Source of the DNA: Candidatus Falkowbacteria bacterium GW2011_GWF2_43_32
Lineage (GTDB): Bacteria; Patescibacteriota; Patescibacteriia; Patescibacteriales; UBA12465
Assembly: GCA_000999715.1 (NCBI GenBank)
Contig: LCGL01000001.1
Span: 323,139-387,138 of the forward strand
Direction of reading: 5' to 3'
DNA length: 64,000 nt
Each line of letters opens with the position of its first letter. Positions within the stretch are counted from its first letter, which is position 1. Shown here piece after piece: positions 1 through 60,060 of the stretch. Under the pieces are notes generated by a model. That model was not told the DNA's origin and made no database searches. It saw only the letters and a list, made by a program, of their open reading frames with translations. A program made the translations under genes and the position numbers.

Positions 1-304
1 CGACCACGACTTGTCTGTTTCCGATCTGAACCGAAACCGTGGGCGACATCTTTTTCAAACCGCGAAAACTGAAAGCTTTTTTTAAACCGTCTTTTCTCCG
101 ACCGGACGCTTTGGCCGCCGAATAAGCATAACCCAATTTATTAAGTAAGGTTATGCCCACCATGGGAAATTTTTGATCGGCCGCCGCTTTAAGAATGTCT
201 CCGGCTAAAATTCCCAGCCCGCCGGCATAATTATTCAAGTCCTCGGCCACGGCTATTTCCATGCTGAAATAGGCGACCACCGGCTGTTTCTTTTTCAAGG
301 TCAT
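1..304 (-). CDS. glgP: alpha-glucan phosphorylase (GlgP/GT35 family), N-terminal fragment; the gene continues beyond the window start
   Basis: Own translation from the ATG at 304 (minus strand): MTLKKKQPVVAYFSMEIAVAEDLNNYAGGLGILAGDILKAAADQKFPMVGITLLNK... This carries the YFSME..GGLG.LAGD N-terminal signature of alpha-glucan phosphorylases. It is missing from the ORF track because there is no stop codon in the window. Confidence 0.7.
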   Translation of the reverse strand, partial: MTLKKKQPVVAYFSMEIAVAEDLNNYAGGLGILAGDILKAAADQKFPMVGITLLNKLGYAYSAAKASGRRKDGLKKAFSFRGLKKMSPTVSVQIGNRQVVV

Positions 305-318
305 ATTTTTCCATTAAT

Positions 319-1560
319 TTAACCGAACATCAACACTTGCGGCCAAAATATCAACAACAAACCGATGGCCAGCATTAACAGGCCGCCAATCAAACGGGAG
401 GCGCGCGTATATTTGGTGGTCACGCCGGTTACCCGCAAAGTAATCATGGCCGCGAAGAAAACAAACAAATCATCCAACATGAAAATAAAAATATATAATG
501 CGATATAAGAATAGTGTTGCCATTTGGTCAGATCGCTCAACGCCAAGATCTGCGTATACACCGCCGGCAAACCGGCCGAACAAATCAACTCCACTAAATT
601 AACGGCAAAAGCCAAAATGATTATGCCTCCCAACGCCAACCAAAAACTAGGCAACTGCGTAATCGCCCGTAATCTCCCAAAAACTCTCTGTCTTTTTTCG
701 CCGCTGACAACTTTACAGCTGTCGTCTTTACGGACAAAAAATTCTTTCAAGCTGTACGCTCCGCCCAAGAGAGCAACCAATCCAATCAATATTCTCACCC
801 ACAAAACAAAACCTAAAAATAAAATCAAATTAAGCCAGGCGGCCATGAATACAAAATAAACCGAAGCCGAAGCGACAATGAAGGCAATTCCCAAAATCCA
901 CATCCTTTTCCGGTTCTGCATGCCCAATAACAAGCCGATTAAAAACAAAAGGGTCCACATGGCACAGGGGTTAAAACCGTCCAAAGCGCCCATAATCACC
1001 GTCAATACCGGTAAAGAAAAAGAATTTAAATCCACTCGTCCCAAGAAAGGAATGTCCATTTCCTTTTTTTCTTGTCCGCCCTCTTCCGTGACGTTCGCCG
1101 CTGTTTGGACATCATCGCCCGAAATCTCTTGATCAAACGTTGCCTCATCCTCCTTGTCCAAGCCGACAATGCCGGCCGTTACATTCGGACAAGTTTGTTC
1201 CAAACAAAAAGCGACGCGATCGCCAAGCTCCGCGGGACTGGAAGATTCGGAAAAACCGACAAAACTTTTATCGCCGATAATGGTAAACGGAATGCCCTCG
1301 ACTCTCGCGCCCAACTCTCGTCCGACTTTCTGCAAAAGCAAAGCGTTGCTCCGATTATTATAGATTTCAAAATCATGAACGCGTATTTGCGGATATTGTT
1401 GTTCCAACTTATCAAGATAAATTTCCTCTTTGGCACAATGCGGGCAACCGTCTCCCCAAAAAAAATAAATATCCAATTCATCGCCGGCCGAAGCAAAATT
1501 TGCGGTCGACAACAAAATAACGATTGCTATCAAAAAACCCCATATTTTTATTCTTTTCAT
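319..1560 (-). CDS. thioredoxin-fold domain fused to a CcdA/DsbD-like membrane thiol-disulfide transporter
   Basis: ORF track 319..1581. The N-terminal part has a signal/TM segment and WGDGCPHC (a CxxC thioredoxin/glutaredoxin motif). The C-terminal part has multiple TM segments with the FNPCAMW motif typical of the DsbD/CcdA family. I prefer the ATG at 1560 (MKRIKIWGF...) because the longer start overlaps the upstream gene. Confidence 0.65.
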   Translation of the reverse strand: MKRIKIWGFLIAIVILLSTANFASAGDELDIYFFWGDGCPHCAKEEIYLDKLEQQYPQIRVHDFEIYNNRSNALLLQKVGRELGARVEGIPFTIIGDKSFVGFSESSSPAELGDRVAFCLEQTCPNVTAGIVGLDKEDEATFDQEISGDDVQTAANVTEEGGQEKKEMDIPFLGRVDLNSFSLPVLTVIMGALDGFNPCAMWTLLFLIGLLLGMQNRKRMWILGIAFIVASASVYFVFMAAWLNLILFLGFVLWVRILIGLVALLGGAYSLKEFFVRKDDSCKVVSGEKRQRVFGRLRAITQLPSFWLALGGIIILAFAVNLVELICSAGLPAVYTQILALSDLTKWQHYSYIALYIFIFMLDDLFVFFAAMITLRVTGVTTKYTRASRLIGGLLMLAIGLLLIFWPQVLMFG

Positions 1561-3103: not shown

Positions 3104-4306
3104 CTACAGATACCGCGGTAAACGGCGCTTGGTTTTCAGGCTGGGAACCTTGATACAATAGATTAAAGCCCAAAAAATCCGGGCCAAACGACTTCGCAAA
3201 TGCCAGCCCCAGAGATTGCCTAAGGCCGATTTTTTACCCAAAGTCAAAAATTCACCGCGATGCTTATAAACAAAAGGCCGCAAGGGTTTGTTGAGCACAA
3301 GTGCTTCAATGTTTCTCGCCGCCACGACAGCCTGTTGATTGGCTACTTGCGCCAATCCGGGAAGAGGTCCCCCGTTTACCAGCAAACAAGAACTGTCCCC
3401 TAAACACAGAACGTTACGATGACCTTTCATTAATAATTCCGGAGTAATTTCCAGCCGGCCATTAACCGCCACCGGCTGATTGCCTAAAAATTCAGGAGTT
3501 TGCGCTTTAAGACCCGCGGCCCAAATAATATTTTCGGCCATAATTTCTTGACCGTTTTGCAAAACAATCCCTCGCGGCGACAAAGATTCCGCCAAAGAAT
3601 TAAAAATAATTTCCACGCCGATTTTATCAAAACATTTTCGAGCTTCGGCTCTCATCCAAGCGGGAAAAGAGGCCAAAATTTCCTGTCCGCGACTAATCAG
3701 TTTTACCGAAAACTCATTATCGCGCAAATGACTGCCCGCACTCAAAAAATGTTTCTGTTGATTCAACAATTGTTCTTGAATATGGGCCGCCAGCTCGACT
3801 CCGGTGGGACCGGCGCCTAAAACGGCAAAAGATAACAGTTGTCGCCGACGTTGTTCGTCACTTTCTTGAGAAGCAAGCAATAAAGCTTTTTCAATTTTGT
3901 CGCTTAAGCGAAGGGCGTCGTCAATGTCTTGAAATTTATAAATTCGGGAGCTTTCTGCCGGAAAAAAAATATCAGCTTTAGCTCCGGTGGCAATAACCAA
4001 AATATCAAAAGTCAAAATCGTTTTTTTCAATCGGACTTGACGCCGCTCCAGATCAACGGCGATTATTTCTTGATGATAAAAAGTCGTCCGCTTATCCAAT
4101 AAGCTCACCAAAGGAATGGCCACCTCGTCCGATCGCAAACGACCGAAAATCAATTCGGGCAACAAAGGAGTAAACAAAAAATAATCTCGCCGATCTACCA
4201 AAGCCAGCTCTATCAGTCCGCGACGCTGAAGCGGCTTTAACAGTTTGGCGGTTTTAATCCCGCCGAATCCCGCTCCCAAAATGACGACTCTTTGTTTATT
4301 TGTCAT
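3104..4306 (-). CDS. ndh: type II NADH dehydrogenase / FAD-dependent pyridine nucleotide-disulfide oxidoreductase
   Basis: 400 aa with an N-terminal VVILGAGFGG Rossmann motif and a second GAGPTGVE dinucleotide-binding motif. The length and layout fit NDH-2. Confidence 0.75.
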   Translation of the reverse strand: MTNKQRVVILGAGFGGIKTAKLLKPLQRRGLIELALVDRRDYFLFTPLLPELIFGRLRSDEVAIPLVSLLDKRTTFYHQEIIAVDLERRQVRLKKTILTFDILVIATGAKADIFFPAESSRIYKFQDIDDALRLSDKIEKALLLASQESDEQRRRQLLSFAVLGAGPTGVELAAHIQEQLLNQQKHFLSAGSHLRDNEFSVKLISRGQEILASFPAWMRAEARKCFDKIGVEIIFNSLAESLSPRGIVLQNGQEIMAENIIWAAGLKAQTPEFLGNQPVAVNGRLEITPELLMKGHRNVLCLGDSSCLLVNGGPLPGLAQVANQQAVVAARNIEALVLNKPLRPFVYKHRGEFLTLGKKSALGNLWGWHLRSRLARIFWALIYCIKVPSLKTKRRLPRYL

Positions 4307-4334
4307 GGCCGAATTTTATCATAAATTGTCTTAA

Positions 4335-4364
4335 TAAAAAAGAGCTCCCGAAAGCTCATTTTTT
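4335..4364. terminator. bidirectional intrinsic terminator upstream of ndh
   Basis: Hairpin GAGCTCCCGAAAGCTC (4342-4357), flanked by an A-run on the left and TTTTTT on the right. Confidence 0.6.
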
Positions 4365-4416
4365 GTAAATATGGTATTTTCACCAACTATTTTTGGGCAT
4401 TAAACCATAAATTAAT

Positions 4417-4444
4417 ATAAAAAGCCCACGTTTTATAGTGGGCT
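4417..4444 (-). terminator. intrinsic terminator of mini-unit 1
   Basis: Minus strand reads AGCCCAC-TATAAAAC-GTGGGCT followed by TTTTTAT. Confidence 0.6.
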
Positions 4445-4480
4445 CTTGCCTTCTCCTTTAAAGGCATTAAACAGTTTGTG

Positions 4481-4582
4481 TTAATAACAACCCTGTTTCC
4501 CAGTCGTTTTCAACAACTCCCTCTTTTGGTGATTTCGTGGCGAGCCGCGAGAATTTTTAACACTTTTTCTAATGTACTTCAT
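4481..4582 (-). CDS. 33-aa highly basic small protein (mini-unit 1), function unknown
   Basis: Own translation: MKYIRKSVKNSRGSPRNHQKRELLKTTGKQGCY*. A GGAGG sequence lies 8 nt upstream of the ATG, which is rare in this window. The ORF has its own TTGACA-17-TATTAT promoter and its own terminator. It is too short for the ORF track. Confidence 0.45.
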   Translation of the reverse strand: MKYIRKSVKNSRGSPRNHQKRELLKTTGKQGCY

Positions 4583-4623
4583 GTCTTTTTCCTCCATATT
4601 AAGTTAATACTAAAGACATTTAA

Positions 4624-4652
4624 ATAATATATCTGTTATACCTTCTTGTCAA
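4624..4652 (-). promoter_or_regulatory. sigma70-type promoter of mini-unit 1
   Basis: Minus strand: TTGACA (4652-4647), 17-nt spacer, TATTAT (4629-4624). Confidence 0.6.
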
Positions 4653-4733
4653 TTGGTTTACTTTCTCACAAAGAATCTATATTTTTAAAACAAAAAATGA
4701 CCATAAAATTATTTTTATACACCCCCTTACGGG

Positions 4734-4793
4734 GTGGCTAACCGCAAAACTTGGCAAACTTTTTTGATGGAGTGCTTGATACATTAAAAAAAA
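4734..4793. repeat. conserved inter-unit module, copy M1
   Basis: Plus strand: gtggctaaccgcaaaacttggcaaacttttttgatggagtgcttgatacattaaaaaaaacc. The first 40 nt differ from M4 at only 2 positions. All four copies share the core AAACTTG(G/A)(C/A)AAACTTTTTTGAT. Confidence 0.85.
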
Positions 4794-5013
4794 CCACCTA
4801 CATGAGATGGTTTTTGTAAAATAGTTCTTTAAGATACCGCAGTGATATCGCAATCCGCAAAGAGCTTCGGCCCACCCTCACAGGATGATTTTTTTATGCC
4901 TTAGCTACAATTCTGGGTTATCAACTCTTAGTGAGGACTTCCCCTTTAATTAGGTTAACCATCTTGCGAGTGATGGTCAGATACTTTGCCTAACTTTCTC
5001 AAAAAGAACTATA
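4785..5013 (-). ncRNA. candidate non-coding RNA A (mini-unit 2), about 229 nt, unknown family
   Basis: A promoter (TTGACT-16-TAAGAT) lies upstream. The terminator hairpin AACCATCT-CATGT-AGGTGGTT plus a U8 run is at 4812-4784. No start codon with a usable ORF is present. The 5' end (5012-5003) is perfectly complementary over 10 bp to 4830-4821, just before the terminator. There is also an internal hairpin ACCATC/GATGGT. Confidence 0.5.
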
Positions 5014-5018
5014 TTTAA

Positions 5019-5046
5019 ATCTTAACATTAGTATTCAAAAAGTCAA
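5019..5046 (-). promoter_or_regulatory. sigma70-type promoter of mini-unit 2
   Basis: Minus strand: TTGACT (5046-5041), 16-nt spacer, TAAGAT (5024-5019). Confidence 0.5.
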
Positions 5047-5112
5047 TAGATTGTACAACATTAAACTTAAAACAAAAAATAATTCCTAAAAAGAAATTGT
5101 TTTTATATATGA

Positions 5113-5176
5113 GTGGCTATTCGAGAAACTTGAAAAACTTTTTTGATTAAATATTTGATAAATTGATATAAAAAAG
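5113..5176. repeat. conserved inter-unit module, copy M2
   Basis: Plus strand: gtggctattcgagaaacttgaaaaacttttttgattaaatatttgataaattgatataaaaaag. It differs from M3 at about 1 position over roughly 48 nt. Confidence 0.85.
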
Positions 5177-5199
5177 ACCCGCGATATTGTTACGGATCT
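5170..5199 (-). terminator. intrinsic terminator of mini-unit 3
   Basis: Minus strand: AGATCCG-(11-nt loop)-CGGGTCT followed by TTTTTTA. Confidence 0.6.
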
Positions 5200-5245
5200 T
5201 ACAGTTTTTATTTAAACATATTTTGAGGGCATGAGCTAATAGTGA

Positions 5246-5398
5246 TTAAACCTCAAAATTTTCCCTAATGGAGTAAAGAAACGCCAACATGAAAGCTGCG
5301 CCAGCGCAAGCTAGAGTTATAACTGATGCTTCAGACTTCCAGTAAAAAACAAAAATGCCAAAAAGAATTGCTGTAAAATAATTAAAGAATGTTTTCAT
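5246..5398 (-). CDS. 50-aa two-TM hydrophobic peptide (mini-unit 3)
   Basis: Codon-by-codon translation: MKTFFNYFTAILFGIFVFYWKSEASVITLACAGAAFMLAFLYSIRENFEV*. An AGGAG sequence lies 9 nt upstream of the ATG. The ORF has its own promoter, a roughly 115-nt leader and a terminator. Confidence 0.5.
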   Translation of the reverse strand: MKTFFNYFTAILFGIFVFYWKSEASVITLACAGAAFMLAFLYSIRENFEV

Positions 5399-5430
5399 AA
5401 CTTATGACTCCTATTTTTAATGTTAAATAT

Positions 5431-5486
5431 AATTAGATTAATTATTAAGTTTACTAACATTAATAGACTTAATAATTAATCTAATT
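5431..5486. promoter_or_regulatory. perfect 20-bp inverted repeat in the 5' leader of mini-unit 3
   Basis: aattagattaattattaagt (5431-5450) is the exact reverse complement of 5467-5486, with a 16-nt loop. It lies between the predicted start site (about 5512) and the SD/ATG (5398). Confidence 0.8.
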
Positions 5487-5519
5487 TTAACCTTTTTGTA
5501 ATGAACTATATAACTAAAT

Positions 5520-5548
5520 AATATATCACATATATTATATTTTGTCAA
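5520..5548 (-). promoter_or_regulatory. sigma70-type promoter of mini-unit 3 (extended -10)
   Basis: Minus strand: TTGACA (5548-5543), 17-nt spacer ending in TGTGA, TATATT (5525-5520). Confidence 0.6.
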
Positions 5549-5635
5549 TCAATTTATATTATTTAATACTGTTGAGCCACATTTTAACCTTACATAATAG
5601 AAAAACCGAGCTTTCGGACCCGTGCTTTCCTTAAT

Positions 5636-5929
5636 CTATTCCCAAAAAATTAATACCAATGAAACAACCCCCAACAAGAAACCGATGATTTGAATTCTAT
5701 TAATCGGCTCCTTATAAAGCACCATCCCCAATATTACTGCGATAATAGCCGACGCCACAGAAAAAATAATTGCTCCTCTTCCTAGTCCGGCTCCATTTTT
5801 AAGAGAAAACAACCAAAAAGAATTTGCCACCAAATAAAGAGCAAGGCTGATTATTGCAAACCAAATTATTTTTTTTAGCGACCACTCTTTTGCAAATACG
5901 TCAGCAACTGCTTCAAAAATTATTAACAA
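5636..5929 (-). CDS. SMR/EmrE-like small multidrug-resistance-family membrane protein, possibly 5'-truncated
   Basis: 97 aa with four TM segments. The motif IIFEAVADVFAKEW aligns with the EmrE TM1 segment ILAEVIGTTLMKF, including the membrane-embedded Glu. The start is a TTG with no SD, only 5 nt from module M3. Confidence 0.5.
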   Translation of the reverse strand: MLIIFEAVADVFAKEWSLKKIIWFAIISLALYLVANSFWLFSLKNGAGLGRGAIIFSVASAIIAVILGMVLYKEPINRIQIIGFLLGVVSLVLIFWE

Positions 5930-5934
5930 TAAAA

Positions 5935-5988
5935 GCGGAAAACTTGAAAAACTTTTTTGATTAAGTATTTGATAAATTGATATAAAGA
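5935..5988. repeat. conserved inter-unit module, copy M3 (left part missing)
   Basis: Plus strand: gcggaaaacttgaaaaacttttttgattaagtatttgataaattgatataaagag. It lacks the GTGGCTA.. left end found in M1, M2 and M4. The SMR-like ORF starts where that end would be. Confidence 0.85.
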
Positions 5989-6238
5989 GAGGGCTAATTG
6001 CTTAGCCCTCAAAAATTTAGAACTCGTTGAACTGCTTTCAAGGCTATTTCACTCTATTCGCCCCTTCGATTAATAAGGACGGTATCTTATTTTTGACTCC
6101 GCTAAAGCTGGCGCCCTAGGTTCACAGTCTCCCGCCTATTCTGCACATTACTAATCTATCTTCAAGCCAACATACAGGAATTGGACCCGCTGGAGATATA
6201 ATCTCTTGCGCCCATTGCGCTACATTGTTTCTAAATTT
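5985..6238 (-). ncRNA. candidate non-coding RNA B (mini-unit 5), about 255 nt, unknown family
   Basis: The promoter is TTGACA-17-TAATAT. The terminator-like hairpin GAGGGCTAAGCAATTAGCCCTC (6010-5989) has only a weak U-tract. No ORF longer than 9 codons is present. The 5' end (6238-6228) pairs over 11 bp with 6023-6013, just before the terminal hairpin, which is the same architecture as RNA A. Confidence 0.45.
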
Positions 6239-6244
6239 AATTAA

Positions 6245-6273
6245 ATATTATAAATAAAATCAACTTTTGTCAA
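6245..6273 (-). promoter_or_regulatory. sigma70-type promoter of mini-unit 5
   Basis: Minus strand: TTGACA (6273-6268), 17-nt spacer, TAATAT (6250-6245). Confidence 0.6.
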
Positions 6274-6346
6274 CAAAAATACAGCAAGATCTATTTTAAC
6301 CCTCATATCCCAGAAAAAAGCAAAATAGTTCATTTTTCCCAAATAG

Positions 6347-6410
6347 GTGGTTAATCGCAAAACTTGGCAAACTTTTTTGATGGAGTATTTGGTGAGTTGA
6401 TAAAAAAGAG
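6347..6410. repeat. conserved inter-unit module, copy M4
   Basis: Plus strand: gtggttaatcgcaaaacttggcaaacttttttgatggagtatttggtgagttgataaaaaagag. Confidence 0.85.
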
Positions 6411-6433
6411 ACCCTTGATGTTATCGCGGGTCT
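6402..6433 (-). terminator. intrinsic terminator of mini-unit 6
   Basis: Minus strand: AGACCC-(12-nt loop)-GGGTCT followed by CTTTTTTAT. Confidence 0.6.
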
Positions 6434-6459
6434 AGAAATTAGGTAATAAAATCTTTAAT

Positions 6460-6609
6460 TTACATAAACATCAGAGACATCAAAATAAATACCGCAGCAA
6501 TAGCCCACGCAAGCGATGATTTTTTAGATTTTTTTTTAAAACTAAAATATAAACAAAGAATACCGGTAATGAATACTAACACTTTTAAAATTAGAATAAA
6601 AATTTCCAT
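6460..6609 (-). CDS. 49-aa two-TM hydrophobic peptide (mini-unit 6)
   Basis: Codon-by-codon translation: MEIFILILKVLVFITGILCLYFSFKKKSKKSSLAWAIAAVFILMSLMFM*. It has the same TM-charged loop-TM layout as the 5246-5398 peptide. Its leader carries a degenerate version of the unit-3 palindrome. The SD is weak (AGAAA). Confidence 0.4.
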   Translation of the reverse strand: MEIFILILKVLVFITGILCLYFSFKKKSKKSSLAWAIAAVFILMSLMFM

Positions 6610-6717
6610 TATTTCTATTTTTTAATTTAACAATTCGATTAATTCTTAAATTTACTATTTATAATAAACTTAATAATTAACCCAATCGTTTTTTGTAAAA
6701 GAACTATATAACGAAAT

Positions 6718-6746
6718 ATCATATCACATTTACTATTTTTTGTCAA
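6718..6746 (-). promoter_or_regulatory. sigma70-type promoter of mini-unit 6 (extended -10)
   Basis: Minus strand: TTGACA (6746-6741), 17-nt spacer ending in TGTGA, TATGAT (6723-6718). Confidence 0.6.
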
Positions 6747-6838
6747 TTAATTTGTCTTCCCACTAGGGGGTAACAAGACCAAAACAAAAAATAACCCCAA
6801 TCCGCCAGCCGGCGGAGGAGTTATTTTCGCTAATATTA

Positions 6839-7057
6839 GGGTGCCTACTGGGAGTATCTCACTCAGCCGCCGCCGGAAACGCGGCGGCTTCGCTCGTCCT
6901 GGGTTGGCGCCGAGCCCTGCGCCAGCTCGGGTTCGTCGACGCTCGTCCGCTCATTTCGGCTTCCGCCTCAACTCGCGTCTCGCTTCCAACCTGTTCAACT
7001 TCCCGGCTAACGCCGACAGTAATAAAAGAACGCGCAAATGCGCGTTTTTTTATTACT
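6839..7057 (-). repeat. tRNA-His trailer module: hairpin, inverted T-arm copy, GC-rich spacer, 17-bp repeat of the tRNA 3' end
   Basis: gggtgcctactgggagt occurs at 6839-6855 and again at 7058-7074 inside the tRNA (17/17). The hairpin is at 7018-7057. gttcaacttccc (6993-7004) is an inverted T-arm copy. The spacer at 6856-6992 is GC-rich. Confidence 0.85.
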
Positions 7058-7058
7058 G

Positions 7059-7130
7059 GGTGCCTACTGGGAGTTGAACCCAGACTATCGGGACCACAAC
7101 CCGACGTTCTACCGCTAAACTATAGGCACC
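7059..7130 (-). tRNA. tRNA-His (anticodon GUG) with encoded G-1
   Basis: Cloverleaf read by eye: GGTGCCTA acceptor including G-1:C73, anticodon stem TCGGG/CCCGA, loop TTGTGGT, T-arm TGGGTTCAACTCCCA. Confidence 0.85.
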
Positions 7131-7169
7131 ATGATTATATTTTAACGTATCTTTAACGATCGTTAAACG

Positions 7170-7241
7170 TACGCCCGGGGGGAGTCGAACCCTCATCTAG
7201 AGCTTAGAAGGCTCCCGTTCTATCCGTTGAACTACGGGCGC
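7170..7241 (-). tRNA. tRNA-Arg (anticodon UCU)
   Basis: Acceptor GCGCCCG/CGGGCGT, anticodon stem GGAGC/GCTCT, loop CTTCTAA, T-loop TTCGACT. Confidence 0.8.
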
Positions 7242-7363
7242 AAAAATAATCCGTAAAAAATAATTAGGAAATTTTCCTCCCTAATTATTGTCTTATATTA
7301 ATAAAAATATTCATTTTTGTCAAACTGCTAATAAATCATTATCTGTTTGCCGATAAGCCTCTT

Positions 7364-8173
7364 TTATTCTATCACTTCTCTTTGCCGTAAGACCTCAAAA
7401 ATAATGACCGCGGCCGCCACTGAAACATTGAGGGAGTCGATTCCCTTGTTCATCGGAATTTTAATCAGCTCGTCGGCGTCTTTCAACCACTTAGCACTTA
7501 AGCCTTCGGACTCCGATCCTAAAATAATCGCCGTCGGCCCGCTCAAATCAACTTGCGTATAATTTTTAGAAGCGCCGGTGGCCGCGCCAAAGCTTTTTAT
7601 TTTCTTTTCTTTCAACCATTTAATCGTTTCGACGATAGACGCGCTGACGACTTTTTCCGTAAAAACAAGTCCTTCGCTGGCTCTAATAACATTCGGATTA
7701 TAAATGTCCGTTTGATTGTCGTTAACAATCACCGCCGCCGCGCCGGCCGCATAGGCGGTTCGGATTATCGCCCCGAGGTTTCCCGGTTTTTCCACCGCCT
7801 CCAGAACAACAATTAATGGATTATCGTTTAGTCTGATGTCTTTAAAGGTCGTTTCTTTTGTTTCGGCAATCGCCAAAAATCCCTCCGGCTTTTCTTTATA
7901 TGAAATCTTATGAAAAGCCGATTCGGAAACTTCAATTATTTTTTCCGTAGCCACTCCGAAAAATTTATCGCTGTTCCCGACAGTGCCCTTTATCAAGCTC
8001 GGACAATAAAACAAATTATTGATTTTCAATCCGGCCTCAATCGCCAATTCAATTTCGCGCGCACCGTCAATAATAATCAAACCGCGAGTTTTTCTTTCGC
8101 CGGTCTTTTTAAGTCGCACCGCTTCCTTGATTGTCTGATTGCTCAGGCTATTTATTGTTTTCATAATTTTCAA
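7364..8173 (-). CDS. SpoU/TrmH-family RNA 2'-O-methyltransferase (RlmB-like)
   Basis: 269 aa. The C-terminal part has the SpoU motifs LEAVEKPGNLGAIIRTA, ILGSESEGLS and IPM.G.IDSLNVSVAAAV. Confidence 0.8.
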   Translation of the reverse strand: MKIMKTINSLSNQTIKEAVRLKKTGERKTRGLIIIDGAREIELAIEAGLKINNLFYCPSLIKGTVGNSDKFFGVATEKIIEVSESAFHKISYKEKPEGFLAIAETKETTFKDIRLNDNPLIVVLEAVEKPGNLGAIIRTAYAAGAAAVIVNDNQTDIYNPNVIRASEGLVFTEKVVSASIVETIKWLKEKKIKSFGAATGASKNYTQVDLSGPTAIILGSESEGLSAKWLKDADELIKIPMNKGIDSLNVSVAAAVIIFEVLRQREVIE

Positions 8174-11853: not shown

Positions 11854-12978
11854 TTATTGTCCGATAGGCATAACGATATAAAGATAGTTATTGTCTTTTT
11901 CCGGTTTTAATAAAAACGGTTGTTTGTCGTTAAGAAGTCCGATTTTAACACGATCGTCATCAATATTATTTAGGCCGTCAAGTAAATAGCGGAAATTAAT
12001 GGTAATCTCGTTATCGCCACCGCTTACTTCCGCGGCCACTTCTATCTGACTTTCTCCGCTTGCCCCGGAAGACGCGGAAACGATAACTTTATTTTTATTA
12101 AAATTCAAAGTGACATCATTAAGGCCGGTTTTGGAAAACAGGGCGGCGGCTTTAACAGCGCGAAGTAGTTCTGTGCGTTCAATAATTGCCTCCATTTGGC
12201 TTTGCGCGGGAATGATTTGCTTATAGTCCGGATAATGACCGTTAACCAGACGGGAAATCAGACTAACCGAATCAATTGTAAATAAAATTTGATTATCGGA
12301 TAAATAAATTTTAATTTCCGGCGTTCCTTCGATATTACCGGAATCAAAATTATTTAAGATTCTCAATAATTCTTGAATCGTCTTGGCGGGAACAATAACT
12401 TTATGTTCTGCACTACTTTCATCTGCTAGAGCGGCAATTTCTTTTTCCGCCAAACGATAACTGTCCGTGGCCGCCAAACTTAGGCGGTTTTTAATAAAAG
12501 AAAACAAAACGCCGGTTAACTCTACCCTGTTTTCGCTGGTCGCGACCGCAAAAACAACGCTATTAAGGGCTCTCTTTAGGTCGTCCGCCTGACAAACATA
12601 GGGATTGTCTTTGGGAATGGTGGGGATTAAAGGAAATTCTTTGGCCTCCTCACCTTTTATTTTTGTTTTATAGTTTCCGCACTCAACCGCCAACTCGCTT
12701 TCTTTAACTTCAACTTTTACTTTTTCTCCGCTATTCAATAAATTAACATATTCGGTAATCAGTTTGGCGTCCACCGTAAACTGTCCGTCTTTTTCGATTT
12801 TTCCGCGAACCTGATGAACGACCCCAATTTCCAGGTTGGTGCTTACCAGTTCAATATTTCCTCCCTCGACTTTAATTAAAATATTATTAAGAATCGGAAG
12901 ATTAATATTCTTGGCGGTGGCATGACCGACAATATTTAAACCGCGTTTTAAATTTTCTTGTAAACCGATGAAACGCAT
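11854..12978 (-). CDS. dnaN: DNA polymerase III beta sliding clamp
   Basis: 374 aa located immediately downstream of dnaA. It has the typical MRF....L...L start and the three-domain length of a sliding clamp. Confidence 0.9.
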   Translation of the reverse strand: MRFIGLQENLKRGLNIVGHATAKNINLPILNNILIKVEGGNIELVSTNLEIGVVHQVRGKIEKDGQFTVDAKLITEYVNLLNSGEKVKVEVKESELAVECGNYKTKIKGEEAKEFPLIPTIPKDNPYVCQADDLKRALNSVVFAVATSENRVELTGVLFSFIKNRLSLAATDSYRLAEKEIAALADESSAEHKVIVPAKTIQELLRILNNFDSGNIEGTPEIKIYLSDNQILFTIDSVSLISRLVNGHYPDYKQIIPAQSQMEAIIERTELLRAVKAAALFSKTGLNDVTLNFNKNKVIVSASSGASGESQIEVAAEVSGGDNEITINFRYLLDGLNNIDDDRVKIGLLNDKQPFLLKPEKDNNYLYIVMPIGQ

Positions 12979-13241
12979 ATAGTTATAATTGTTATATTAT
13001 TTATTATATTAATTAATAATAACAATAAGGGAGTGGATAATTTTTACTTTTGGCGATTTTTTTAAAATTTATTAAGGATTTTTTAGATTTTCATGTTGAT
13101 AACTCTCGGGGCGTTTTGTTGATTACTTTTGACAACCGGTGGACAGAAAAAATATTTTTTAAGTTATTCACAAAACACTTTTTTTATCCACAAAGAAATT
13201 AACAAGATATCAACAAAATATTTGGTTAAAAACGGGCGGTT
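12979..13241. other. candidate oriC (DnaA-box cluster plus AT-rich tract) in the dnaA-dnaN intergenic region
   Basis: One perfect TTATCCACA lies at 13184-13192. Near-matches (8/9) are TTATTCACA at 13164-13172, aGTGGATAA at 13032-13040 and TGTtGATAA at 13094-13102. The tract at 12979-13030 is almost pure A/T. Confidence 0.6.
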
Positions 13242-14630
13242 TTAATAAGCGGCGGTAAATAACTGTCGGATAGAATCTACCTCTTGCTTTATCTTTTTGT
13301 TTTCCAACTCTTTTATTTCTTGGGAAATTTTGTTGTAAGAGTGCATGGCGGTGGTGTGGTCGCGCCCGCCCAGTTCGGCTCCGATTGCCGGATAAGACGT
13401 TCCCAGCTCTTCTCTAATCAAGAAAATGGCGATTTGTCTGGGCCAAACCAACTCCTTTTTGCGACTTTCCCCGGTCAGATCTTTATAATTTAAATTATAA
13501 AATTTGGCGGTTGTTTCAATAATTTCTTTGGGAGTCAGGGACCTTAATTGAATATTGGAAACATAGTCATTAAGAATCTCTTTGACCGTTTTAAGAGACG
13601 GAGACAATCCTTTAAATTGGTGCGAGGCAATAACCTTTGTTAAAGCTCCTTCCAGTTCTCGAATGTTGTTTTGAACGTGATCAGCAATGTAGGATAAGAT
13701 TTCTTTATCTAAAGGAAAGTTTTTTTCCAATGACTTTTTTTCTAAAATAGCAATTTTAGTTTCTATGTCCGGCTTGCCGATGTCGGCCACCATCCCCGAT
13801 TCAAACCGGGAAATCAGCCGTTTTTCAATCGCCGGCAAGGATTTTGGCGGACGATCGGAGGTCAAAACAATTTGCTTGTCGTTTTGTTGCAGTTCATTGA
13901 AGGTATGAAAGAATTCTTCTTGAGTTCCGTCTTTCCCACCCATAAATTGCACGTCGTCCACCAAAAGCAAGTCAACATTACGATAAAGATTTTTAAATTC
14001 TTTTGCTTTTCCGGTTTTTACGGCCTGGATATAATTATTGGTGAATTTTTCACTGGTGGTATATAATATTTTGTCACTGGTTTTGGCCACGACGCCGCCG
14101 ATCGCCTGAAGAAGATGGGTTTTTCCCAAGCCGACACCACCGTAAATAAACAAAGGGTTGTAAGATTTACCGAGATTTTCCGCCACAGCCAAGCAAGCGG
14201 CATGGGCCAACTCGTTGCCGCGTCCGACAATAAAATTTTCAAAGACATAGCGCGGATTTAGCCCGAAGCGGTTGCTTCCGCCATTCGATTCCCGAGAAAC
14301 GGAAGAATCGTTTTTAATCGTTTGAATGGGAGTCTCGATTTTTGTTTCACTTTTAGTCGCGAGAGGCGCTTGTCCGCCGCGTCGTAACTCGATTTTATAA
14401 ATAATTTCTTGGATCGGTTTTTTGGAAACGTTTTCCAGCGCACCGAGAATGTTTTTATGATATTTTTCCTCCAGCCATTTTTTTACAAAGGCGTTGGGAA
14501 CGCAAATAATGACTCGGTCATTTTCAAAAGAGGAAAGAAAGGTATCTTTAAACCAGGTAACAAAATTTGCTCGAGACAGCCCTATTTCAATTTCACCCAA
14601 AACGGCTTGCCATATTTGTTCGTTGGTCAT
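13242..14630 (-). CDS. dnaA: chromosomal replication initiator DnaA
   Basis: 462 aa with Walker A GGVGLGKTHL, the DDVQF box and the C-terminal DNA-binding motif GGRDHTT..H. Confidence 0.95.
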   Translation of the reverse strand: MTNEQIWQAVLGEIEIGLSRANFVTWFKDTFLSSFENDRVIICVPNAFVKKWLEEKYHKNILGALENVSKKPIQEIIYKIELRRGGQAPLATKSETKIETPIQTIKNDSSVSRESNGGSNRFGLNPRYVFENFIVGRGNELAHAACLAVAENLGKSYNPLFIYGGVGLGKTHLLQAIGGVVAKTSDKILYTTSEKFTNNYIQAVKTGKAKEFKNLYRNVDLLLVDDVQFMGGKDGTQEEFFHTFNELQQNDKQIVLTSDRPPKSLPAIEKRLISRFESGMVADIGKPDIETKIAILEKKSLEKNFPLDKEILSYIADHVQNNIRELEGALTKVIASHQFKGLSPSLKTVKEILNDYVSNIQLRSLTPKEIIETTAKFYNLNYKDLTGESRKKELVWPRQIAIFLIREELGTSYPAIGAELGGRDHTTAMHSYNKISQEIKELENKKIKQEVDSIRQLFTAAY

Positions 14631-39601: not shown

Positions 39602-39700
39602 GTGGACTTGAGGGGACTTTCGCGCTCGTTCGCCGCTTGTTCGAGTTCCTTTCGATCAGTCAATAAATTATTCAGACAAAGCCTGAATAATTTATTGATG
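39602..39700 (-). repeat. tRNA-Ala(CGC) trailer module: hairpin, inverted T-arm copy, GC-rich spacer, 17-bp repeat of the tRNA 3' end
   Basis: gtggacttgaggggact occurs at 39602-39618 and at 39700-39716 in the tRNA (17/17). A 16-bp-stem hairpin is at 39661-39697. gttcgagttcc (39639-39649) is an inverted T-arm copy with 1 mismatch. The spacer is ttcgcgctcgttcgccgctt. Confidence 0.85.
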
Positions 39701-50672: not shown

Positions 50673-50919
50673 CTAAAAAAAAGAACCCCACCTGCGTGGG
50701 GTTCTTTTTTTAAGATTGAAAGCATAAGGGACTTGAAAGCCGGAGGCGATGCGCACTTGTGCGCCGCCGAGGCCGGGTCGGGGCGCTTAGCGAGTGAGAC
50801 TTGCGAAGCAAGCGAGCGAGGCTTAGCGACCGTGACCAAGTCCCTTATGGTCCACTAATGAAAACAACCCGAACTGCTTTGGGTTGTTTTCATTAAAGAT
50901 AAAAATAAGGGACTTGAAC
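50673..50919 (+). repeat. tRNA-Ala(GGC) trailer module, doubled: hairpin, inverted T-arm, GC-rich spacer, 22-bp 3'-end repeat, second hairpin, second inverted T-arm
   Basis: caagtcccttatggtccactaa occurs at 50655-50676 and 50837-50858 (22/22). cataagggacttgaa (50723-50737) and ataagggacttgaac (50905-50919) are 15-nt exact inverted copies of the T-arm. Hairpins are at 50676-50712 and 50859-50895. The GC-rich spacer is at 50738-50836. Confidence 0.85.
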
Positions 50920-59843: not shown

Positions 59844-59919
59844 CTCAAAATTTACTCTGGTAATAAAATTGAAGTCTCAAAGGTATTTAAGAGGCCTTAA
59901 ACCAGCCTCTTTTTTATTT

Positions 59920-60060
59920 AGAGCGGGTAAGGGGAATAGCGTGCTCGATTATTCGTCGTCGCTTCCGCTCCTCCTCATATCTCGCTCGCTACCTGTCCGA
60001 TTCCCGGCTCGACTCTTATAAAATAAAACAGCCCCTGACGAGGCCGTTTCATTTTATAAG
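59920..60060 (-). repeat. tRNA-Gly trailer module: hairpin, inverted T-arm copy, GC-rich spacer, 18-bp repeat of the tRNA 3' end
   Basis: agagcgggtaaggggaat occurs at 59920-59937 and 60059-60076 (18/18). The hairpin is at 60015-60060. gtccgattccc (59995-60005) is an exact inverted T-arm copy. The spacer at 59938-59994 contains ctcgctcgct and cgtcgtcgcttccgc. Confidence 0.85.

Follow-up and report, generated by a model that had tools for sequence, protein, structure and literature searches.

A conserved 60-nt module behind tRNA-His in Patescibacteria, a probable distal attachment arm of integrative elements and of their recombinase-less mini-derivatives

Four copies of a conserved module of about 60 nt (M1 to M4) lie in the genome of Candidatus Falkowbacteria bacterium GW2011_GWF2_43_32, within a 64,000-nt stretch of contig LCGL01000001.1 (positions 323,139 to 387,138; hereafter the window), and they raise the question of what such a module is for. 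All copies fall in an islet at 4300-6850 that is gene-poor and has a G+C content of 28-37%, against about 44% elsewhere in the window. An earlier note, made from the sequence alone, had read the copies as antisense promoters, and had listed a regulator-binding site and a recombination or junction site delimiting cassettes as alternatives. Our comparison with related genomes supported the last of these through tRNA-His anchoring, shared flanks and a recombinase link. The modules are very probably the conserved distal arms of attachment (att) sites, belonging to integrative elements at tRNA-His and to recombinase-less mini-derivatives of these elements.

A repeat search of the window returned a single family of direct repeats with four copies, at 4733-4793, 5112-5172, 5926-5986 and 6346-6406, in which M2, M3 and M4 were 74%, 69% and 84% identical to M1. 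The 22-nt core AAACTTGNNAAACTTTTTTGAT occurred exactly four times in the 64 kb, even with three mismatches tolerated; the chance expectation in the window is 0.05, and four matches were reached in 0 of 100 shuffles. The four conserved copies of the earlier note were thus borne out, as were its two subfamilies, since M1 and M4 show 2 differences in the first 40 nt and M2 and M3 are identical at 46 of 47 positions over their common part. The profile of the whole family set the bounds of the 60-nt module at 4731-4790 (M1), 5110-5169 (M2), 5933-5983 (M3) and 6344-6403 (M4), and all copies have the same orientation, with the payload sense on the minus strand of the window. Because M2 and M3 are so alike and their variant TTGAAAAAC was absent from every other genome with modules, their likeness, judged by sequence comparison, points to local copying or gene conversion. 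Within an intergenic region of a viral contig (L025, IMGVR_UViG_3300002091_000153, 14147-14185), 26 nt, ATCAAAAAAGTTTTTCAAGTTTTGCG, agree with the M2/M3 variant, and the rest of the module is absent there.

The copies differ in the state of their terminal core TTAGCCACCCC, which is intact only in M1. The ends of M4 and M2 are degenerate (…AACCACCT and …ATAGCCACTC), and M3 is without its last ~10-12 nt including the core, which is lost, and directly abuts a 97-aa open reading frame (ORF) of EamA type. No strain variation of the array was found among its public copies, which are all identical and include the metagenome-assembled genome (MAG) GCA_003489845.1 and a 418-kb contig of the Joint Genome Institute. 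Two independent public assemblies (Logan contigs L074 and L075) stop inside M1, at window position 4772, which indicates that the repeat fragments short-read assemblies at this locus.

To find out whether the module is confined to this genome, exact-pattern scans were followed by a profile search. With each species represented by a single genome, the core turned up in 24 stretches, of which 16 belong to Patescibacteria-type MAGs; metagenomes contributed 38 more stretches. The profile search then yielded about 90 module copies, 69 of them distinct, in 43 loci besides the window, and the loci with a module come from Patescibacteria-type contigs. The consensus in payload sense is (ATATC)AATTTACCAAATATTCCATCAAAAAAGTTTKCCAAGTTTTGCGATTAGCCACCCC. 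Positions 26-45 are essentially invariant (invariant block AAAAAAGTTTKCCAAGTTTT), the conservation ends abruptly past CACCC, and about 90% sequence identity is kept across genomes. Copies within any locus are always co-oriented and number 1 to 5 per single locus, with 7 jointly in the two stretches L030 and L032 of contig Ga0209125_1000018. In 27 of the 44 loci, the first module is preceded, at a distance of 0.36-1.2 kb, by the co-oriented pair tRNA-Arg(TCT)-tRNA-His(GTG). The other loci offer too little sequence ahead of the first module for the anchoring to be judged, apart from L007, whose 6.8 kb upstream is cargo of a large element of the recombinase-bearing family described below. No array anchored other than behind tRNA-His was seen among the 44 loci. 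These results disposed of two readings against which the earlier note had asked its proposal to be checked. The many copies in other genomes argue against simple local tandem duplication, and a motif confined to arrays behind tRNA-His is not a generic terminator flank.

The same alignment bears on the promoter reading, in which the plus strand of each copy would carry TTGAT(G/T)-18-TGnTATAAA, with transcription entering the neighbouring unit at its 3′ end and cis-antisense RNAs controlling the peptide genes, much as type I antitoxins do. In its favour, TTGATx-18-TGaTAnAAA is indeed present in M2, M3 and M4, hydrophobic peptides of 49-50 aa with long structured leaders make up two of the payloads, and a plus-strand hairpin lies at about 5225-5262. 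However, TTGAT(G/T/A) is present in 59 of 69 distinct copies, but a -10-like hexamer (at least 4/6 matches at a distance of 16-19 nt) in only 29, the TG extension in only 17 and TAnnnT in only 7. The invariant positions 26-45 lie mostly upstream of the supposed -35 element (positions 22-27), where a promoter needs nothing; the apparent -10 overlaps the T-run of the preceding terminator; and modules follow payloads of all kinds, including enzymes, RNAs and a 9.9-kb element. Nor does an antisense promoter explain the tRNA-His anchoring and the recombinase link. Extended -10 promoters therefore lack support as a feature of the family, the -10 not being conserved, and for the same reason an antisense promoter was rejected as the cause of module conservation. 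We regard this reading as very unlikely, although the individual copies M2, M3 and M4 might, by their sequence, still act as plus-strand promoters.

The boundary between tRNA-His and the arrays was then compared with the modules. The module end TTAGCCACCC(C) resembles the 3′ ends of tRNA-His, which read (A)TAGGCACCC(C) or, in some lineages, TAGCTACCC; the tRNA-His of the window shows this resemblance as well, and in L070 tRNA-His itself ends in TAGCCACCCC, identical to the module core. Right after tRNA-His stand the same few conserved left-end variants that stand after modules, the similarity starting from CACCC, and in L004, L008 and L015 the tRNA flank is nearly identical to a module flank of the same genome. 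The shared left-end variants imply that tRNA-cassette and module-cassette junctions are equivalent, and on this sequence evidence such equivalent junctions would be the product of site-specific insertion at the 3′ end of the tRNA gene.

The intervals between boundaries, 220-2125 nt long, behave as cassettes, the same ones being found at differing array positions in different genomes. Thus, unit E, the stretch between M4 and M3 of the window, has counterparts in the first cassette of L045 (80% identity) and in the third one seen in L032 (76% identity). L015, L022, L023/L031 and L050 all contain a cassette for a GNAT acetyltransferase, and further cassettes are shared between L021 and L051, L014 and L055, and L032 and L061. 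In one case, presence and absence could be compared within a population. In L048 (same as L002 and L036), cassette Y directly follows tRNA-His, whereas L037, from the same sample series, shows a module, cassette X, a module and then Y, the two copies of Y being 99.6% identical. The L037 module ahead of Y carries the tRNA-type core TTAGGCACCCCA, and cassette X also opens the array of L038 (87% identity). L048 and L037 show a presence/absence polymorphism precisely at the boundary.

A binding site of a host regulator or nucleoid protein, which would co-regulate or insulate the downstream promoters, was weighed against these data. The module contains the direct half-sites AAGTTTKCC and AAGTTTTGC, and in the window the next TTGACA promoter lies at a roughly constant distance of 80-110 nt from the core of M1, M2 and M4. 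In most family members, though, a terminator hairpin stands between the module and the next promoter, terminal modules precede convergent or unrelated genes (L021 and L065), and there is one locus only per genome. The tRNA anchoring, the tRNA-like core, the shared flanks and the recombinase link would also be left without explanation, and such a site is scarcely credible as the function of the module. In a separate check of core types, IHF-type and sigma-54-type cores were set aside for their poor fit to the consensus, judged by eye only.

The position of the terminators raised the question of whether the module acts as RNA. In the window, a hairpin with a T-run precedes each copy in the minus sense (4815-4789, 5199-5175, 6010-5989 and 6433-6409), M4 and M2 each come after a 49-50-aa membrane peptide gene that has a long AT-rich hairpin leader, and M3 and M1 each come after an ORF-free stretch of ~200 nt. 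The placement directly after a terminator, as described in the earlier note, therefore held for all four window copies but not as a rule of the family. In related loci, an ORF frequently ends right at the module with no terminator ahead of it, and a hairpin is nearly always found on the module's other side, downstream in the minus sense. In several loci where an ORF ends at the module and the terminator follows it, the module is probably transcribed as a 3′ untranslated region (3′ UTR), which fits an RNA element in payload sense, such as a shared 3′ UTR or small RNA offering a protein-binding site or acting as a stabiliser. Against this speak the lack of a predicted structure, of an Rfam match and of a promoter of its own, and the tRNA anchoring, tRNA-like core, flank identity and recombinase link would again go unexplained; we consider an RNA element extremely unlikely. 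A structured RNA or attC-like hairpin was tried as a candidate and rejected, the folds of both strands having z-scores from -1.05 to +1.5 and the consensus centroid structure being empty. An Rfam 15 scan of 3800-7800 (E <= 1) returned two tRNAs and terminator-type noise only.

Larger relatives of the cassettes revealed a recombinase at the opposite end from the module. The contig of L031 begins within tRNA-His, continues with left-end variant 2 and then with the opposite-strand gene of a large serine recombinase (101-1498, minus strand; Pfam domains Resolvase, Recombinase and Zn_ribbon_recom). Beyond it come a second serine recombinase of 247 aa, an AAA_25 protein and cargo, and a module 9.9 kb from tRNA-His closes the element. 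A database search with the large recombinase gave 59 homologues. Most of the 34 homologues that were read (40-90% identical) have tails such as EWQTTFLPLYNRKNELLDSSFPNGVPTGNRT, which equal the translation of left-end variant 2 and then of antisense tRNA, so that these genes sit in the same place; among the homologues checked in their contigs, five of five abut tRNA-His. The loci L064, L065 and L066 share the context of the window, with some of SpoU methylase, tRNA-Arg and tRNA-His, then the penicillin-binding protein gene, dnaN and dnaA, and the gene contexts of L068 and L070 differ from it. The far ends were checked in the loci where they lay in reach, that of L064 being out of reach. A module was found at 9.65 kb from tRNA-His in L065, at 7.3 kb in L066/L067 (there followed by another cassette and module) and at 10.2 kb in L070, and the far end of L068 at 7.4 kb, in an element whose recombinase is 48% identical, bears a weak diverged copy in which GTTTTCCAA is still kept. 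These autonomous elements of 7-10 kb encode a large serine recombinase of ~500 aa, a smaller one of 247-266 aa and an AAA_25 protein, and the gene of the large recombinase adjoins tRNA-His and reads into it.

The large recombinase stands at the target-proximal end in L031 and in L064-L071, not in the window. The window retains relics of its 3′ end, one at 5631-5567 (E = 5.6e-8) and a weaker one at 6319-6282 after M4. Since left-end variant 2 contains the last codons of the recombinase, this variant is itself a relic of the recombinase gene.

The organisation of the arrays also suggests a site of a tyrosine recombinase, either integron-like (attC/attI) or of a lambda-type integrase, with the serine recombinase elements merely sharing the hotspot. 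It is known that attC sites are structure-conserved hairpins recombined single-stranded by a tyrosine integrase encoded beside attI, and that integron cassettes are promoterless. The arrays, in which single-gene cassettes each bear a 3′ site, do look integron-like, four co-oriented TTWNCCA repeats in the module (TTTACCA, ATTCCA, TTTKCCA and TTAGCCA) could be arm-type sites, and variable left ends would be tolerable to a one-armed site. Yet the module has no hairpin potential on either strand (z from -1.05 to +1.5), its sequence rather than its structure being conserved. The attC test gave a core TAGCCACCC with no GTTRRRY, upstream neighbours SpoU methylase, tRNA-Arg and tRNA-His, and no IntI. 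No tyrosine-family integrase was found beside any array, the one XerC/D-like gene, in L068, being not adjacent, and every module-ended element with a recombinase has a serine recombinase on its tRNA side. A tyrosine recombinase site is accordingly quite unlikely, although such an enzyme might still act on the mini-cassettes. A dif/Xer site was rejected separately: the array lies ~6 kb from dnaN/dnaA and the GC-skew minimum, on the origin side, and no dif-like palindrome was present.

Taken together, the far-end modules, the tRNA-like core, the shared flanks and the cassette shuffling support the module as a distal att arm. In the mechanism we propose, the module would be the P arm of attP and, once integration has taken place, would turn into attR or an internal junction; its end TTAGCCACCC(C) matches the 3′ strand of the tRNA-His acceptor, exactly so in one lineage. 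The invariant block AAAAAAGTTTKCCAAGTTTT is the likely half-site bound by the recombinase; with its TTTKCCAA, it lies 10-30 bp from the core, where the half-site of a serine integrase is expected, and left-end variant 2 presents an inverted TTGGAAAA across the core from the module. Strand exchange in the shared core would join the incoming element to the tRNA by its left end and leave the module to close its far side, and repeated insertion would stack units in tandem. Recombinase-less units of 0.2-2 kb would persist between modules in the manner of cis-mobilizable elements and may be movable in trans. Each such cassette has a terminator-like hairpin of its own as its left end and carries a payload, in most cases with a TTGACA-type promoter and in some with a terminator. 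The cassettes were most likely placed by the large serine recombinase that bigger relatives encode in other genomes; we infer that this is the enzyme, and that mini-cassettes may move in trans and at the present day.

Several observations weigh against this reading. The window itself has no recombinase among its 29 ORFs scanned against Pfam, and tblastn with the L031 recombinases against the whole window and L001-L063 matched only L031 itself, so the in-window copies may be inert relics. Neither an excised circular form nor an empty site was seen, and a search of viral contigs for the attP form or close recombinases gave only distant ones (best 32% identical). A serine integrase normally requires two defined half-sites, but the left ends (P′) comprise several unrelated variants, of which only variant 2 has the inverted TTTTCCAA motif, and the others have at most a loose AAAG-type motif in common. 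The crossover point is ambiguous. Both junctions of L031 and of L065 have nothing but ACCC(C) in common, which puts it in ACCC; dyad symmetry of the attP as rebuilt, like the chimera in L037, indicates TA(G), a few bases further left. Finally, serine integrases canonically recombine attP x attB, and insertion beside an occupied site departs from this. Tandem insertion has been reported, though, for SCC-type and ssrA-island systems.

The reading frame of the large recombinase adds a further aspect. The recombinase ORFs of L031 and L064-L071 have no stop before the att core and, in the integrated state, read into antisense tRNA-His, which gives the recombinases variable C-terminal tails; they also cross a hairpin resembling a bidirectional terminator. 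When the circular form was rebuilt, the frame ran antisense through the module for ~18 codons to a stop (GVANRKTWKTFLMEYLVN*), which sits at the edge of the conserved block. This tail frame is open in 62 of 69 module copies, and four recombinase-linked modules keep it despite their divergence. Codon periodicity in the frame had a permutation p of 0.07, and the count of synonymous and non-synonymous changes does not single out the frame. We therefore offer only as a hypothesis that the module may serve as the antisense tail of the recombinase. The same peculiarity, and the suggestion that the tail is supplied from the circular form, have been published for dsiB of the ssrA islands of Dehalococcoides (PMC3146451). 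A broader idea, possible but tentative, is that Patescibacteria would have at tRNA-His an integron-like capture platform run by a large serine recombinase in place of a tyrosine integrase. Self-contained cassettes of 0.2-2 kb, each with one gene or one RNA, would enter, leave and be reshuffled in trans, and the module would supply the last ~18 codons of the recombinase, GVANRKTWKTFLMEYLVN. If this were true, only the excised circle could yield the full-length recombinase, an arrangement amounting to an integration-coupled switch.

We then asked whether comparable systems are known. Composite islands of the SCCmec type at rlmH (orfX) are built by the serine recombinases CcrA and CcrB. Like the arrays here, they combine a serine recombinase pair with integration at the 3′ end of a housekeeping gene and form tandem composites with recombinase-less pseudo-elements between integration-site repeats; unlike them, they have a protein-coding target, elements of 20-60 kb, no conserved 60-nt arm and Firmicutes hosts. 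Integrons share the co-oriented, mostly single-gene cassettes with a 3′ recombination site that recur across positions and genomes, and the lone polymorphism, if it was an insertion, fits insertion beside the anchor. The site described here, in contrast, is unstructured and conserved in sequence, most cassettes bring their own promoter and a left end resembling a terminator, a tRNA gene serves as the anchor, and the linked enzyme is a serine recombinase on mobile relatives. With their tiny promoter-bearing units of a single gene or RNA, the arrays resemble integrons in organisation, not in chemistry. A literature search for integrons, serine recombinases or tRNA-His islands in Patescibacteria brought up no specific account.

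Among published systems, the ssrA-specific genomic islands of Dehalococcoides come closest (McMurdie et al., 2011; PMC3146451). As in the arrays here, these islands follow one another in tandem after a small-RNA gene present in a single copy, whose 3′ end is repeated at their borders, their reverse-strand integration module at attL encodes a large (DsiB) and a smaller (DsiA) serine recombinase, the recombinase ORF overlaps attL with no stop inside the island, an additional conserved motif lies just upstream of each repeat, and recombinase-less islands are read as cis-mobilizable elements (PMC3146451). The likeness is one of anatomy. The differences are that the target here is tRNA-His, not ssrA, and the phylum Patescibacteria; that the shared core is ~9-10 nt instead of 20 nt and the conserved arm beside it 50 nt instead of 15 nt; that the units are mostly single-gene cassettes of 0.2-2 kb instead of islands of 10-30 kb; and that they usually have a promoter of their own and a terminator-like left end. 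The concept of the cis-mobilizable element (CIME) and of accretion, cited in the same work (PMC3146451), also applies in part. CIMEs, like the window cassettes, are flanked by att sites, have no recombination or transfer genes and stand in tandem with an autonomous relative that mobilises them, but they are kilobases long, few per site and mostly linked to tyrosine integrases, compared with at least 7 very small units in an array here. The system is thus a miniature form of a known genomic-island type, which differs in target, phylum, lengths of arm and core and, above all, unit size.

To place these features in the window, the locus was mapped along the minus strand, on which all of the following features lie. 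It starts with tRNA-Arg(TCT) at 7169-7241, the conserved upstream neighbour of the anchor, and tRNA-His(GTG) at 7058-7129, the anchor and proposed bearer of attB, whose 3′ end reads ...CCCAGTAGGCACCC; both were called by ARAGORN and Rfam. A non-module mini-insertion of 219 nt (6839-7057) separates tRNA-His from the cassette array and is made up of an AT-rich hairpin, a GC-rich structured unit of ~160 nt and 17 nt that repeat the tRNA-His 3′ end exactly (6839-6855). The array then opens with the left end of its first cassette, P′ variant 1 (6750-6838), a terminator hairpin and a ACCCCCTAGTGGGAAG box before the promoter, which is homologous to sequence 3′ of tRNA-His or of a module in other genomes. 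A typical unit opens with a hairpin and its T-run and continues with a TTGACA-17-TAnnnT promoter, the payload and a terminator; there are five units in the window, three left-end hairpins are decayed, and cassettes F, E, C and B each contain only a peptide gene or a non-coding stretch between their boundaries.

Cassette F (6404-6749; promoter TTGACA-17-TATGAT at 6746-6718, terminator 6433-6409) has a conserved leader with a long AT-rich hairpin and the ORF of a 49-aa membrane peptide (6609-6460), and is followed by M4 (6344-6403; 59 bits; degenerate core TTAACCACCT). Cassette E (5984-6343; promoter 6273-6245, terminator 6010-5989) begins with a decayed P′ variant 2, the weak match at 6319-6282, carries a candidate structured non-coding RNA at about 6235-6015 and ends at the truncated M3 (5933-5983). 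At M3, the core and the left end of the next cassette are missing, and the module is fused to the single-EamA-domain ORF of 97 aa (5636-5929), which has no promoter of its own and no recognisable ribosome-binding site. The 5′ end of this ORF is probably truncated (one public annotation makes it 120 aa, with a start inside M3), and the ORF together with M3 looks like a deletion-fused, possibly dead cassette. Directly after the ORF, with no module ahead, comes the P′ variant 2 relic (5567-5631; nhmmer E = 5.6e-8), a hairpin with the antisense remnant of the 3′ end of the large serine recombinase gene.

Further along, cassette C (5170-5566; promoter 5548-5520, terminator 5199-5175) again has a conserved AT-rich hairpin leader, here with a 50-aa membrane peptide ORF (5398-5246), and is followed by M2 (5110-5169; 46 bits; the variant TTGAAAAAC, degenerate core ATAGCCACTC). 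Cassette B (4791-5109; decayed left-end hairpin, promoter 5046-5019, terminator 4815-4789) leads to M1 (4731-4790; 61 bits), with the intact core TTAGCCACCCC at 4731-4741. The ~190 nt at 4816-5010 within cassette B contain no ORF and have no homologue among the collected loci; they may be an RNA gene or a decayed payload. The distal unit A (4340-4730) has a variant-1-like left end, a promoter at 4652-4624, a basic ORF of 33-38 aa (4597-4481) and terminators at 4447-4420 and 4357-4342, but no module after it, and may be the native flank of tRNA-His; beyond it lies an NADH dehydrogenase-type gene (4306-3104). The array of about five units, partly decayed, is best seen as a relic.

Some features of the locus recur beyond the att question. 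The segments 5399-5520 and 6610-6718 (minus strand) consist of a conserved promoter and a ~110-nt 5′ leader with a 30-bp AT-rich hairpin. This leader heads unrelated membrane-peptide ORFs of 49-79 aa in many cassettes, was also found in L015 (1860-1976 and 2520-2625), L008, L014 and L006, and could be a shared expression or regulatory platform. The genes dnaN and dnaA (11854-14630) and the minimum of the cumulative GC skew near 12-13 kb place the origin ~6 kb from the tRNA-His array, and the origin neighbourhood is also near tRNA-His in the related loci L064, L065 and L066.

Two types of structured RNA candidate accompany the arrays. The first is the payload of unit E (5989-6235, minus strand; about 235 nt), which is conserved in four genomes, with homologues in L045 (between tRNA-His and the first module), L032 (between the second and third modules) and L005. 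It has a closing stem UUUAGAA/UUCUAAA, a T-arm-like hairpin GCGGGUUCGAUUCCUGU and 11 pairs with compensatory changes among the four sequences, and gave no Rfam match. The second belongs to the mini-insertions that stand right after 4 of the 11 tRNA genes of the window (His, Gly-TCC, Ala-GGC and Ala-CGC). In each of these mini-insertions, an AT-rich hairpin is followed by a GC-rich unit of ~40-160 nt and then by 16-18 nt that exactly repeat the tRNA 3′ end. The mini-insertions were mapped at 6839-7057 (minus), 59870-60059 (minus), 50674-50857 (plus) and 39603-39699 (minus); the tRNA-Gly unit alone was matched by the model, both tRNA-Ala units being recognised by eye. The 5′ motif of each GC-rich unit is reverse-complementary to the T-loop and to the 3′ strand of the T-stem in the tRNA that the unit follows. 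The units have no Rfam match and no ORF, and the TTGACA-type promoter is absent from them. Homologues of the His-type unit occur as cassettes in three other arrays (L020, 1108-1287; L027, 3016-3193, minus strand; L062, 2018-2195), and a four-copy alignment showed compensatory changes in 27 of 48 pairs.

The arrays behind tRNA-His represent a recurrent, easily recognised and hitherto unannotated hotspot of gene flux in Patescibacteria (the Candidate Phyla Radiation, CPR), organisms with tiny genomes whose mobile elements are poorly charted. Their cargo includes small membrane peptides, acetyltransferases, defence-like genes and at least two structured RNA candidates. The 60-nt module can be used as a probe for such arrays and accounts for the assembly breaks in two public contigs, and for annotation, the promoter-like appearance of the repeat is no evidence for antisense regulation. 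With a recombinase, an arm of 50-60 bp and a short tRNA core, the elements would form a compact att system and a candidate tool for genome engineering. Islands of serine recombinases apparently can shrink to cassettes of integron size, which may be a case of convergence.

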